A DNA stretch of 64,000 bases from Gammaproteobacteria bacterium (GTDB lineage Bacteria > Pseudomonadota > Gammaproteobacteria > CAJXQU01). The notes below the pieces were generated by a model. That model had not been told where the DNA came from, ran no database searches, and saw only the letters and a list, made by a program, of their open reading frames with translations. Positions 24,525 to 31,524 of this stretch are shown here, in pieces. The position numbers and the translations under genes were made by a program. How positions within the stretch are numbered: position 1 is the stretch's first letter; the number at the start of each line of letters is the position of its first letter. The stretch covers positions 1,056,001 to 1,120,000 of the forward strand of contig CBDEGZ010000003.1 of assembly GCA_965238175.1 (NCBI GenBank), given 5' to 3'.

Positions 24525-24564
24525 TATACCCCCATCTGAGGTCATGAAATATCAACTGCTAAGG

Positions 24565-25790
24565 TGTAGAAATTCAGATTTGATCTGACAGTTACCCAAT
24601 TATCAGTAACCGACTGTCAGGTTAAGTTTAATTCACAAACTTTTCCTTCCAGATAGCTTGTCCGTCGATGAGTGTTTCCATCGGCGTCCTCCCGCAGCAC
24701 ATTTTGCCTTGGTGAGTTCGTTGAGTATTGTATTTGAGCAACCATTCGTCAAGGTCGAGTTGCAGTTCATCAATCGATTGGTAAATTTTCTTACGCAAAG
24801 CGACTTGATAAAACTCATTGAGGATCGTCTTATGGAATCGCTCACAAATACCATTCGTCTGAGGTGATTTGACCTTGGTTTTGGTGTGTTCGATATTGTT
24901 CAACGCCATATAAAGCTGATAATCATGCTGGTCAGCTCGCCCACAATACTCCGTCCCTCTATCTGTCAAAATGCGCAACATAGGCAAACGTTGTTGTTCG
25001 TAGAATGGGAGGACGCGGTCATTGAGCATGTCAGCTGCCGTAATCGGTGTTTTAGTCGGGTACAGTTTCGCGTGAGCGACCTTGCTGTAAGTATCAACAA
25101 ACGTTTGTTGATAAACCCGACCAATGCCTTTGAAAGTACCGACATAGTAAGTATCTTGCGAGCCAAGATAACCAGGGTGTGCCGTTTCTATCTCGCCACA
25201 AGCCTCATCGTCGTCTTTTTTGCGTTCCATCGCCGCGACTTGAGACTCAGTGAGGATCAAGCCTTCACCAGCTACCTTATCAGACAATGCCTTCAGGCGA
25301 TCTTTAAAGCAAGCAAGACCATGACGAAGCCAGATACAACGAACGCCACTGGGTGAGACAAATGTTCCCCGTTTGCGCAGCTCGTTACTGGTGCGCGTTT
25401 GACCATGTGCGGGCTCTTCCAGTGCATACTCGAGCACAACGGTTTCAATAGCCGGGTCGATTCTGTTTTTAAGATTTGGGGTACGCCGATTACGATCAAA
25501 CAAGGCTTCTACACCGCCTTCATCAGCCGCTTCTTTGTAGCGATAAAATGTATCTCTGGACAAACCCATCATCTTGCAGGCTTTTGAGACATTGCCGAGT
25601 TCTTCAGCGAGATTGAGTAGACCAACTTTATGTTTTATAACTTTGTCATTAGTATGAATCATGAGAGTTACCTCTTTGTGTTTTGATGTTTACGTTGCAG
25701 TTACATCAAAGCGGGTAACTCTCACTAAATCAAGCGTCGCTACGCTCCGCTTGATTTAGTGATGTGTCAGATTGGGTCTAAACTTCTACA
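24565..25790 (-). mobile_element. IS481-family insertion sequence, copy 2 (1226 bp)
   Basis: Near-identical to copy 1; its own 7-bp TSD GCTAAGG at 24558-24564 and 25791-25797. Confidence 0.95.
24628..25662 (-). CDS. IS481-family DDE transposase
   Basis: Protein identical to 17427-18461. Confidence 0.96.
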   Translation of the reverse strand: MIHTNDKVIKHKVGLLNLAEELGNVSKACKMMGLSRDTFYRYKEAADEGGVEALFDRNRRTPNLKNRIDPAIETVVLEYALEEPAHGQTRTSNELRKRGTFVSPSGVRCIWLRHGLACFKDRLKALSDKVAGEGLILTESQVAAMERKKDDDEACGEIETAHPGYLGSQDTYYVGTFKGIGRVYQQTFVDTYSKVAHAKLYPTKTPITAADMLNDRVLPFYEQQRLPMLRILTDRGTEYCGRADQHDYQLYMALNNIEHTKTKVKSPQTNGICERFHKTILNEFYQVALRKKIYQSIDELQLDLDEWLLKYNTQRTHQGKMCCGRTPMETLIDGQAIWKEKFVN

Positions 25791-25820
25791 GCTAAGGATT
25801 AGAGTACAAATGCGTAATAA

Positions 25821-26020
25821 TGTTGCACAACGTTTCGACTATGGTTAGTACGGGATTATAAAGGCGATAACTTTTCGATTAAGCACTTAGTCAAAACTTT
25901 CTATTTTATTTTTTCAATTATAAAAGCCAAATCCACTAAGACTTAGTGAACCTTGTTAAAAGCTCTTAATTTCAGGTTAAGCACAAACCCATATTAATTC
26001 TGGCCCTTGTTAACACTAGT
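25821..26020 (-). repeat. Cassette recombination site 1 (attC-like, Bacteroidota type)
   Basis: Plus strand TGTTGCACAAC...CTATGGTTAGTACGGG...CCCATATTAATTCTGG...GTTAACACTAGT; lies just after the stop of the ankyrin gene. Confidence 0.7.
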
Positions 26021-26028
26021 GTATGTTG

Positions 26029-27087
26029 TCATTCAAATATTTTATCAATTTGTTTAGATGGATTTTCAAAAAACTCTTTAATGTTACATAATTCTTTAAA
26101 TTCTTCGTGTTCATAGTCAGCAGAAGCAAAACATTTTTTCTTTGGATACCACACTAAAAACCCCTCGGAACTGTAATTATCAACTTCACTTAATAAGTCT
26201 AGAAATTTATATTTATTCCATTTTACTTCTTTAATATTGATTAGTGAGTTGAAAATTATATAATCTAATTGATTATTTTCTTTGCATTCTATTTTGCGAT
26301 TTTTACTTCGAATTAATTCTATTAATTGTTTTGGTAATTTGTAGCTTTTTAAATCCGTTAATTTTTGTTCTTCGTTATGCCATTGTTCTGGTTCTAATGA
26401 TTTTATAAACGCTATCATTTTTTTATTCTTATTGGCAACAGCACAGTTATATGGTCTTTCTCCATATTTGTCTTTAACCTTTACATCTGCGCCTTTTTGA
26501 ACTAAAAGCTTTACGGTTTCTAAATCATTGTTTTGTGCAGCAATATGCACAGGCGTTGAGTTGCAAGGATAAACCATATCAGGTTTGCAGAAATTTACGT
26601 CAATGCCATAATTTAAAAATATTTTTACGGCATCATGCTGTTTATTTGATACAGCTTGTCTAAATGAATCGCCATCATTTTTTAAGTCATAACCATTCTC
26701 AATTAATAATGAAATTGCGTCGAAGTTATTTCCATATAAAGCATCATTCATTGCTGTCTTACCATTACTGTGTTTAGCATTTACTTTTGCTCCATTTTCT
26801 ATTAGCAGCTTGATAGTTTCCATATCACAGCTTGAACAGGCCATTAGAATTGAAGGGTTGTCTTTGTCATTTAACTCAACTTTTTTTAAAATTAACCATT
26901 CTATTACTTTCTTCTTATTTTCATAAAGAGCAAGTGTAATTGGCAGCTCATCTATATACTCAGCAATGTTAAAGATTGCGTTTATATTCAATCCATTTGA
27001 AAACTCATGTTCCAATTTTTCAATGTTTTCTGACATTATTAATTCAGCTAATTCTGTTAATTTATCTTTTGGTCCGAATAATTTCAT
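26029..27087 (-). CDS. Ankyrin-repeat protein (cassette gene, immunity-like)
   Basis: Ankyrin motifs TPVHIAAQNNDLETVKLLVQKGADV and GKTAMNDA; AT-rich; A-rich leader without SD. Confidence 0.88.
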   Translation of the reverse strand: MKLFGPKDKLTELAELIMSENIEKLEHEFSNGLNINAIFNIAEYIDELPITLALYENKKKVIEWLILKKVELNDKDNPSILMACSSCDMETIKLLIENGAKVNAKHSNGKTAMNDALYGNNFDAISLLIENGYDLKNDGDSFRQAVSNKQHDAVKIFLNYGIDVNFCKPDMVYPCNSTPVHIAAQNNDLETVKLLVQKGADVKVKDKYGERPYNCAVANKNKKMIAFIKSLEPEQWHNEEQKLTDLKSYKLPKQLIELIRSKNRKIECKENNQLDYIIFNSLINIKEVKWNKYKFLDLLSEVDNYSSEGFLVWYPKKKCFASADYEHEEFKELCNIKEFFENPSKQIDKIFE

Positions 27088-29889: not shown

Positions 29890-30201
29890 ATGACCAGCAA
29901 CAGAAAACCATACAAAACCTATACCCGAGAATTCAAACTAGAAGCGTTACGCTTGATGGAGCAATCAGATAAACCGTCATCTGAGATTGCCGCTGAACTT
30001 GGTATACGGCGTAATCAGCTCTATAAATGGAAAGAACAACTGACCGACAAAGGTGATACTGCATTCCCAGAACAACGTGGAAGGCCTAAGAAAGAAGCAC
30101 AAAGTGAACTCACCACCTTACGCCAAGATAATGCACGGCTGAAGGAGGAAGTTGAGATATTAAAAAAGGCCGCGGTGTACTTTGCAGGCGAACTCAAGTG
30201 A
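29890..30201 (+). CDS. IS3 transposase OrfA
   Basis: YTREFKLEAL HTH region, coiled coil, ILKKAAVYF. Confidence 0.93.
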   Translation: MTSNRKPYKTYTREFKLEALRLMEQSDKPSSEIAAELGIRRNQLYKWKEQLTDKGDTAFPEQRGRPKKEAQSELTTLRQDNARLKEEVEILKKAAVYFAGELK

Positions 30202-31058
30202 AGTACGCCTTTATTAAAATACAACGTCGCCATCACTCTGTGTCGTTATTATGTCGCACCCTGACTGTCTCAGTCAGTGGTTATTATGATTGGTTAGACA
30301 GGCCTCAAAGTAAGACACACTCAACGAATCAACGGTTACTGACGAAAATAAGATGTTTTCATCAAGCTAGTTTTAAGCGTTATGGTTCACCTCGGATACA
30401 TCGAGACCTACTCGATTCAGGTGAAAAAGTAAGTCGACCGCGTGTTGCACGTTTGATGAAGACTGCTGGCATTCAATCGAAGATGGCCAAACGGTTTGTG
30501 ATTACAACCAATTCAAAAAATACCACAGCACCTGCACCCGATAGGCTCAAACGTGAATTTCGTGTCAATGAAACAAATAAAGCCTGGGTAGCTGACACGA
30601 CCTTTATTCGTACTCGGCAAGGTTGGTTATATTTGGCTACCATGATGGACTTGTATTCACGGCAAATTATTGGCTGGGCGATGTCTGAGCGTAATGACAC
30701 CAAGCTAGTCACTGATGCGTTAACGATGTCGCTGTCACGCAGAGACAAGGCAAAAGATGTGATTGTCCATTCCGACCAAGGCAGCACTTATGCCTCGGGT
30801 GATTATCGAAAGCTCATTAAAGATAATGGCTTCCTTTGTAGTATGAGCCGAAAAGGTGAATGCCATGATAATGCGGTCGCTGAAAGTTTCTTCGGCAGCC
30901 TCAAAACAGAGTTGGTTGATGATGAGGATTATCGAACACGTAGCGATGCCAAACAAAGCCTATTTCACTATATTGAAGTGTTTTATAATCGAAGACGGAG
31001 GCATTCTTATTTAGGCTATGTTAGCCCTGTAGAATTTGAGCGGGCAAATGCCCCTTAG
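30198..31058 (+). CDS. IS3 transposase OrfB (DDE)
   Basis: YGSPRI, WVADTT, HSDQGSTY, DNAVAESFF; -1 frame relative to OrfA. Confidence 0.95.
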   Translation: MKYAFIKIQRRHHSVSLLCRTLTVSVSGYYDWLDRPQSKTHSTNQRLLTKIRCFHQASFKRYGSPRIHRDLLDSGEKVSRPRVARLMKTAGIQSKMAKRFVITTNSKNTTAPAPDRLKREFRVNETNKAWVADTTFIRTRQGWLYLATMMDLYSRQIIGWAMSERNDTKLVTDALTMSLSRRDKAKDVIVHSDQGSTYASGDYRKLIKDNGFLCSMSRKGECHDNAVAESFFGSLKTELVDDEDYRTRSDAKQSLFHYIEVFYNRRRRHSYLGYVSPVEFERANAP

Positions 31059-31388
31059 TTATTTGCTCCGTTAAAGTGTTGCAACCTCACACTGTGTTTT
31101 TTTCTAATAGGGCTACTTTGTGTTGTTTTAAATCTATATTTTTTAGCAGGCGTACTTTGTCAAAACTGGTTAGGTTTTGACAGGAAGCCAACAATAATAC
31201 GAGTAATAAATACCAGGCAGGTTGCCTTATATGGTTTCATTTTTTTAGTTATTATCTGTTTTTACTTTAGGACATTTTAAAAGACCTAATAAAAATATTG
31301 TATTATTGATTAAAGAGTCTAATTCCTGTTTCTGTGCTTGAATGCTGCTTGTCCAGCATAAAAGTAATAAAGAGTTTTCTTTATCATA

Positions 31389-31439
31389 TTTTACAACCGT
31401 TTGTGTATGAAATATAGTGTGTAAAAGGTGCTAACTTTT
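31389..31439 (-). repeat. Cassette recombination site 5 (half site)
   Basis: TTTTACAACCGTTTGTGTATGAAATATAGTGTGTAAAAGGTGCTAACTTTT closely matches the corresponding half of site 3. Confidence 0.75.
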
Positions 31440-31524
31440 GAGGGTACACTTGGAATTTGAAACCGTCCAGTAAGCGAAATTAAATCGAGCCTGGACTGAT
31501 CCTGAGGGATCCTGGATCAGGCCC

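Follow-up and report, generated by a model that had tools for sequence, protein, structure and literature searches.

The window analysed here comprises 64,000 nucleotides (nt) of a gammaproteobacterial chromosome (positions 1,056,001 to 1,120,000 of contig CBDEGZ010000003.1, GenBank assembly GCA_965238175.1) and carries an AT-rich block of 4.4 kb made up of four genes and five repeat sites. We consider this block very probably to be a horizontally acquired, recombinase-less fragment of a cassette array of the type found in marine Flavobacteriaceae. An initial annotation had presented the range 24525-31440 as a Bacteroidota-style cassette array of immunity-like genes. This range also contains two insertion sequences (IS) of the host that had not been named; the strong AT-richness of the region and its four co-oriented minus-strand genes were readily recovered from the composition and from the open reading frames (ORFs). 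The GC content is 28-32% over 26001-30000 as compared to about 40-45% on either side. With the IS removed, it amounts to 29.2% over 25791-31455 and 40.8% in the remaining window, flavobacterial arrays having 29-31%. The 16S sequence of the host shares 85.5% identity with E. coli, 89% with a genome of the same class and 75% with a Flavobacteriaceae genome, and the host is thus no member of Bacteroidota. The features of the block are given below, the repeat sites being read on the plus strand, which is opposite to the genes; R1 designates a covariance model of the flavobacterial element described further on.

24370-24492, plus strand: 3' remnant of an IS3-family transposase gene, as read from the sequence, at the left edge of the foreign block
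24565-25790, minus strand: IS481-like element of the host, transposase at 24628-25662 (Pfam HTH_29 and rve)
25825-26031, plus strand: site 1, boxes GCACAAC (25825-25831) and GTTGTCA (26025-26031), 17-nt arms at 25838-25854 and 26004-26020
26029-27087, minus strand: cassette gene 1, ankyrin-repeat protein of 352 amino acids (aa), Pfam Ank_2 at E 7e-27
27120-27240, plus strand: site 2, full-length copy of the ~130-nt flavobacterial element, R1 91.8 bits, E 1.7e-21
27229-28146 (or 28155), minus strand: cassette gene 2, DUF7738 and DUF6892 protein of 305 aa, Pfam E 5e-21 and 1e-40
28149-28324, plus strand: site 3, boxes CCCACAAC and GTTAGGC, 15-nt arms at 28162-28176 and 28299-28313
28330-29178, minus strand: cassette gene 3, weak leucine-rich-repeat (LRR) protein of 282 aa, LRR families at E 2e-4 to 3e-4, below cut-offs
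29193-29252, plus strand: site 4, 60-nt short form with the variable middle deleted, boxes CCCTGAC and GTTGTTG, R1 55.7 bits, E 3e-12
29300-29826 (ORF 29300-29854), minus strand: C-terminal part of cassette gene 4, no family, cut by the IS3 element
29827-31089, plus strand: IS3-family element of the host, orfA at 29890-30201 and orfB at 30198-31058 (Pfam HTH_Tnp_1 and rve)
31087-31242, minus strand: N-terminal part of cassette gene 4, with its start codon at 31242; the signal peptide, of lipoprotein type, is read in a different frame
31390-31453, plus strand: site 5, truncated site of the site-3 type, TTTACAAC box, left arm at 31403-31417 and remnant at 31444-31453

Sites 1 and 3 display the same layout: an AAC box is followed after 5-6 nt by an arm of 15-17 nt, and beyond a long middle come the complementary arm and, 4 nt further on, a GTT box, which in site 1 contains the stop codon of the ankyrin gene. 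The arrangement of AAC, spacer, arm, arm, spacer and GTT had been claimed for all five sites. It holds for these two and fails at site 4, where GAC replaces AAC, and at sites 2 and 5, which have lost ends: in site 2 the 3' end of the DUF6892 gene, with its stop codon, stands in place of the final ~8 nt of the right arm and of the GTT box, and the truncated site 5 forms the right edge of the AT-rich block. The sequences said to be shared between sites 2 and 4 and between sites 3 and 5 are indeed 95% identical over 40 nt (27128-27167 and 29201-29240) and 87% identical over 47 nt (28152-28198 and 31393-31439), respectively, and the cores of both pairs occur at this locus only within the host genome. 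The arms of site 3 pair over 15 bp and those of site 4 form a 16-bp hairpin, in both cases with two G·T wobbles on the plus strand, with arms of equal length and without a bulge. Folded as DNA, site 4 reaches -7.6 kcal/mol on the plus strand versus -5.4 on the other (z = -4.0 against shuffles). By nhmmer, site 2 matches the flavobacterial profile with an E-value of 1.8e-31 and site 4 with an E-value of 5e-12, and by BLAST site 2 is 83-91% identical to flavobacterial copies; R1 gives a weak match to site 3 in the right register (11.8 bits, E 0.55). Positions 25818-26020, covering most of site 1, are matched by Flavobacteriaceae genomes at 74-79% (BLAST), the one copy that was aligned showing 84% column identity. 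A search of the sites against Rfam returned no family, its single match (E up to 1) being a chance small nucleolar RNA. Judged on sequence, sites 2 and 4 are members of the ~130-nt flavobacterial element, and site types 1 and 3/5 are additional flavobacterial repeat types.

The lineage in which these sites are at home was apparent from the 23-nt core shared by sites 2 and 4, whose exact sequence was found in 35 records of a genome collection. All 35 are Bacteroidota by title: 33 Flavobacteriaceae, one "Bacteroidetes bacterium" and one Roseivirgaceae. When aligned, these records define a conserved element of ~130 nt extending from YAAC to GTTG, and a profile built from them detected many more copies across the fetched loci, spaced 0.6-1.5 kb apart and sharing one orientation. 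By BLAST, DNA of the array is present in 253 of 401 Flavobacteriaceae genomes versus one of 399 other genomes of the host's class, one further genome being unscored, so that the recurrence in Bacteroidota to be expected of a transferred array is well documented; site-3 type DNA occurs in 131 of the 401. None of six same-genus genomes contains array DNA, the sole other match among 40 relatives being of 32 nt and at chance level, and R1 matched none of five same-genus genomes. Single copies of the element, 75-80% identical, were also found on plasmids of Tenacibaculum finnmarkense, Flagellimonas marinaquae and Persicobacter psychrovividus. In Tenacibaculum (CP116296.1, 95163-95274) the copy lies beside a pair of genes encoding a tyrosine recombinase and an IS91 transposase. 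A phage vector was considered and rejected, the core being absent from viral contigs and the element from a phage collection.

R1 was built from 84 distinct aligned flavobacterial copies of the element. On these copies, RNAalifold predicts a 17-bp stem between the arms, with compensatory changes in 11 of the pairs. Pairs were counted on a structure that we specified, in which the arm stem is combined with the end boxes and with a small hairpin inside: 95.3% of the cells are paired, as compared to 33-50% once the partner is displaced by 1-3 columns, and 17 pairs show double changes as compared to 5-12 when slid, the observed values being reached in none of 500 shuffles. Two stem columns carry G·T wobbles, in 81 and 82 of the 84 copies, and sites 3 and 4 of the window retain this two-wobble pattern exactly. 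Since G·T wobbles become A·C mismatches on the coding strand, the full stem is available only opposite the genes and does not constitute a structure of the sense transcript. Both arm variants are found within single arrays, which argues for a constraint on pairing and not on a fixed protein-recognition sequence. The absence of an extrahelical base from the arms, remarked upon in the initial annotation, is true of most copies, a minority of the flavobacterial ones having one extra T in the left arm.

Of five flavobacterial genomes searched, three contain ORFs (394-403 aa) that match the integron-integrase model in two pieces. In this flavobacterial recombinase (~380-400 aa in the four arrays) positions ~180-239 of the IntI model, the place of the IntI-specific domain, are left unmatched. 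One such protein scored 199 bits on TIGR02249 (cut-off 265) and 232 bits on an Xer-type model, which is not discriminating as the XerD of the host passes it too. All four arrays examined begin within ~2 kb downstream of the recombinase gene, in the same orientation, and the source arrays contain 9-11 detectable same-orientation elements per 20 kb. The proposed link of the sites to a XerD-like recombinase is therefore found in Flavobacteriaceae, where the arrays adjoin a co-oriented Xer-like tyrosine recombinase. The mutual similarity of the copies ends at the AAC and GTT boxes, and in four genomes the same element is followed by different, unrelated genes. Among 78 ORFs of four flavobacterial arrays, Pfam identified Barstar in two and Imm33 in one, besides hydrolases, a methylase and Fic, PIN and Shedu domains; with this mixed content the arrays look like a pool of cassettes and not like an array devoted to immunity.

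The gene identities first assigned in the window hold for the ankyrin and DUF6892 genes and, weakly, for the LRR gene, whereas the "lipoprotein" is a gene split by the IS3 element with its parts in different frames. Its signal peptide with lipobox lies at 31087-31236, and in silico removal of the IS3 element does not bring start codon, lipobox and C-terminal part into a common frame; the gene would be either broken or affected by A-runs misread in sequencing. The best relatives of the DUF6892 protein are 43-45% identical. As anticipated, its matches are predominantly from Bacteroidota: 29 of the 32 that carry an organism name come from genera which we take to be Flavobacteriaceae, the remaining three being one Chitinophaga, one Maricaulaceae and one Methylophaga. 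In a protein atlas its nearest cluster has Bacteroidota as the commonest phylum, and the DNA of the gene is matched in Flavobacteriaceae genomes at 67-69% (BLAST). An AlphaFold model of this protein (pLDDT 79.9) found no Foldseek match in the PDB at E ≤ 0.001, and the C-terminal 125 aa of the ankyrin protein gave no Pfam match better than E 0.03. Homologues of the LRR protein (29-33% identity) occur in six of 301 Flavobacteriaceae genomes, and three of these six loci have adjoining R1 elements. As the searches with the cassette genes returned no close homologues, the donor species cannot be named. None of the four genes matches an immunity family in Pfam, NCBIfam or PADLOC, the latter returning ankyrin-repeat matches only and NCBIfam sub-threshold repeat matches only. 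Shine-Dalgarno sequences had been said to be missing behind A-rich leaders. A GGAG, GAGG or AGGA motif is in fact absent upstream of all five candidate starts, which says little since only 5 of 20 host ORFs have one by a crude choice of start, and leaders are A-rich (60-63% A) in only two of the four genes.

Two host insertion sequences lie in or beside the block. The IS481-like element is inserted just downstream of site 1, is flanked by GCTAAGG on both sides and has ~58 copies with the same ends in the genome. The IS3 element interrupts cassette gene 4, whose halves lie to its left and right, and is bordered by CAC at either end (a 3-bp duplication); seven full or partial copies exist elsewhere, the six full-length ones being 99.8-100% identical. 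An IS3 element bordered by a target duplication within a cassette implies that the block was already in the genome when the IS moved.

This insertion bears directly on the possibility of an assembly artefact, in which a contig from a flavobacterial contaminant would have been joined into the chromosome, and to which we assign next to no probability. The sharp jump in GC content does coincide with IS repeats prone to misjoins, and the contigs obtained from the short reads of public run X1 stop at IS ends, overlapping them by 27-30 letters where the rule of the tool is 31. As X1 may be the assembly's own source and the overlaps are below 31 letters, the long-range joins are without independent confirmation. 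However, one X1 contig spans 25764-29853 with zero differences and the block has a depth of 6.6 as compared to 4.3 and 6.7 in its unique flanks, the contamination estimate of the genome is 0.85%, and no sign of a chimeric join was seen. Furthermore, R1 detected three more flavobacterial-type elements on the same 3.33-Mb contig (1344661-1344796, 2844288-2844424 and 2855273-2855433), in two other AT-rich loci (C3:1342750-1348100 and C3:2843750-2857250) which contain co-oriented small genes, one of them DUF1963, and adjoin IS481-like and IS3 copies. These elements either belong to one larger array scattered by IS-mediated rearrangement or stem from several acquisitions. Runs X5 and X6, which bear the same species label, contain next to none of the stretch, which is no proof of absence, and among RNA runs none was listed as containing it. 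On a second explanation, the cassettes would have been captured by the classical integron integrase of the host itself, the block being a piece of its array (a CALIN) displaced by IS rearrangement. The host does possess such an integrase (C3:2175053-2175916, 396 bits on TIGR02249), within an integron (C3:2155001-2175916) whose cassette array of more than 17 kb has ordinary attC sites and minus-strand cassettes and is capped at its far end by two tandem IS481-like copies; IS elements are abundant across the genome, and the window sites share with attC the AAC and GTT end boxes and the overall geometry. Nevertheless, all five window sites are of flavobacterial types, R1 misses the attC sites of the host (best E 0.21), no host-type attC adjoins the block, which lies 1.09 Mb from intI, and the intI match is interrupted by a TAG within its first 40 model positions, which form a separate piece. 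The sites of this integron are also GC-richer and of other sequence families, its cassettes are shorter (most ORFs 90-200 aa) and its IntI gene is adjacent and divergently placed. We therefore regard capture by the host integrase as very unlikely. The absence of a recombinase from the window, already recognised in the initial annotation, extends to the whole genome as regards the cognate type, a flavobacterial query finding only XerC/XerD (31-35% identity) and IntI, with 31-37% identity over the long matches.

The repeats could, instead of being recombination sites, be selfish miniature inverted-repeat elements or transcription terminators, and this we find improbable, if a little less so than capture by the host integrase. 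The terminal inverted arms of the element, its internal hairpin followed by a T-rich run in gene orientation, its occurrence as single copies outside arrays, as on the Tenacibaculum plasmid, and the lack of any observed recombination product would all suit such elements. They fit poorly with the constant orientation of the element relative to the genes, with arrays that begin at a tyrosine recombinase in four cases out of four and with copy similarity that stops at the boxes to give way to unrelated genes; the mismatches that the wobbles leave in the sense transcript mean that the long stem is no messenger RNA structure. As for the cargo, ankyrin and LRR proteins are common effectors in intracellular gammaproteobacteria, and the genes might now encode secreted host effectors acting on eukaryotic cells and be retained for that role. 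NCBIfam gives weak ankyrin-repeat matches to Dot/Icm effector families (59 bits for a cut-off of 600), but these cover the repeats only and are far under the cut-offs, and one of the four cassette genes is broken; there is little to recommend this idea, which we place on a par with capture by the host integrase. Several observations count against the interpretation that we favour, a flavobacterial cassette array fragment. No recombination event has been observed, either here or in Flavobacteriaceae, and in two of five element-carrying flavobacterial genomes no such recombinase stood out. R1 does not match site 1 and its score on site 5 is not significant (E 10). In folding energy, sites 1, 2, 3 and 5 do not surpass shuffled sequence (z -0.6 to +0.9), and since this is so for the long sites, the case for the fold rests on covariation. 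The cassette proteins are without close flavobacterial relatives (≤45% and ≤33% identity). Finally, one genome of the host's class (G561) carries four elements on a single 72-kb contig of ~36% GC with internal duplications, together with a 302-aa recombinase 48% identical to the flavobacterial one, and the system is thus not strictly confined to Bacteroidota.

In run X1, a contig of depth 2.19 joins 27149 to 29228, that is, site 2 to site 4, skipping both cassettes between them. The joint has the form of a site-by-site deletion; its shorter side measures 22 letters and may stem from another copy of the element. This joint and two others (28350 to 29566 and 25790 to 30664) were not counted, their sides of 21-22 letters being below the threshold of the tool.

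With regard to its setting, the conserved core of the genus stops at a NUDIX gene near 24316, and no counterpart of the DNA to the right of site 5 was found in the genus. In three same-genus genomes the NUDIX gene is followed, ~8 kb on, by a homologue of window positions 63265-63648, which places the block within a larger variable region. Just beyond the AT-rich block, two neighbouring open frames on the plus strand (31506-32122; 95 and 106 codons, stop to stop) have no family and no counterpart in the genus. More mobile elements follow at 32850-35980, so that this variable region is rich in IS: an IS110-type element, of which the genome has ~25 copies, is accompanied by a gene for a DDE transposase (34276-35238) and by a fragment of IS3. 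Just ahead of the IS110-type element, a stretch of ~70 nt (32732-32804) recurs at C3:2023865-2023946 with 80% identity and is matched in two same-genus genomes at 83-93% (30-60 nt); this stretch may represent a target or end sequence of that element. Elsewhere in the assembly, the small contig C1 (10,967 bases) has a GC content of 55.8% as compared to 40.4% for the chromosome and may represent either a foreign plasmid or contamination.

The original proposal of an rAID- or CALIN-like array moved across phyla is supported by these data, except that the closest kin are arrays of Flavobacteriaceae and not the published rAID-1 arrays of Bacteroidales. rAID-1, described for the order Bacteroidales, is defined by a 5' XerD-like recombinase more than 44% identical to BF9343_RS08045, at least two co-oriented downstream genes with a GC content ≤41%, repetitive intergenic sequences and orphan immunity genes. 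The flavobacterial source arrays share with it a 5' co-oriented Xer-like recombinase, low-GC co-oriented genes, intergenic repeats, their occurrence in Bacteroidota and an integron-like appearance. The window has the four co-oriented genes at 29.2% GC and the repetitive intergenic sequences, whereas such a recombinase is present neither in it nor in the genome. The likeness of rAID-1 to the kin arrays in Flavobacteriaceae is one of architecture, and the orphan immunity genes of the former differ from the mixed cassette content of the latter. To integrons and CALINs, as portrayed in the IntegronFinder 2.0 paper (PMC9024848), the arrays are related by one gene per cassette, a very diverse content and, for the window, a recombinase-less cluster as in CALIN; the sites likewise have AAC and GTT boxes, an unpaired spacer, paired arms, a variable middle and a fold that is favoured opposite the genes. 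A classical integron has an adjoining integrase with the IntI domain, in contrast to the window, which has none, and to the flavobacterial arrays, whose partner recombinase is without that domain and co-oriented with the cassettes. Classical attC sites carry extrahelical bases, whereas most flavobacterial-type sites have none and display two fixed G·T wobbles instead. In our literature search, which was of partial coverage, we found no description of such arrays in Flavobacteriaceae, and an earlier one may exist. The more novel part of these findings, namely the structured site and how widely the system occurs in Flavobacteriaceae, lies outside the window.

In the source lineage, each cassette comprises one gene and, after it, a structured site of ~55-200 nt. 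Such a site begins with an AAC box, a short spacer and an arm of 15-17 nt, has a variable middle in which a terminator-like hairpin is often found, and ends with the complementary arm, a further spacer and a GTT box. The Xer-like recombinase would excise and insert cassettes through the folded strand opposite the coding strand, in the manner of integron integrases at attC, the choice of strand being dictated by the two fixed G·T wobbles instead of extrahelical bases. In the present host, the lack of the cognate recombinase, the lost box of site 2, the truncation of site 5 and the IS in and beside the block make it most likely that the block is a frozen relic, whether its genes are expressed or not. 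We infer the direction of transfer, the present inactivity of the block and the recombination of the sites as single-stranded DNA. A wider proposal seems to us plausible rather than probable: about six in ten sampled Flavobacteriaceae species genomes hold sites of the system, and the family might carry a widespread integron-like cassette-capture system with a co-oriented Xer-like recombinase that lacks the IntI domain and a wobble-encoded choice of strand; pieces of its arrays, accompanied in one instance by the recombinase, would have crossed into Gammaproteobacteria.

Under this wider proposal, the window would contain the first cross-phylum fragment of this kind to be described. If our interpretation of the block is correct, recombinase-associated cassette arrays of Bacteroidota are able to enter another phylum and persist there, the ~130-nt element providing a clean sequence marker with which to trace such transfers. 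This class probably escapes integron tools that are geared to IntI and to classical attC: in the IntegronFinder 2.0 paper (PMC9024848), almost nothing is reported in Bacteroidetes, only In0 elements and one complete integron, in Salinibacter. According to a 2025 preprint, how rAID-type arrays get built is still unknown. The covarying stem, the AAC and GTT ends and the strand-specific wobbles would together offer a defined and testable recombination-site model for the building of such arrays.

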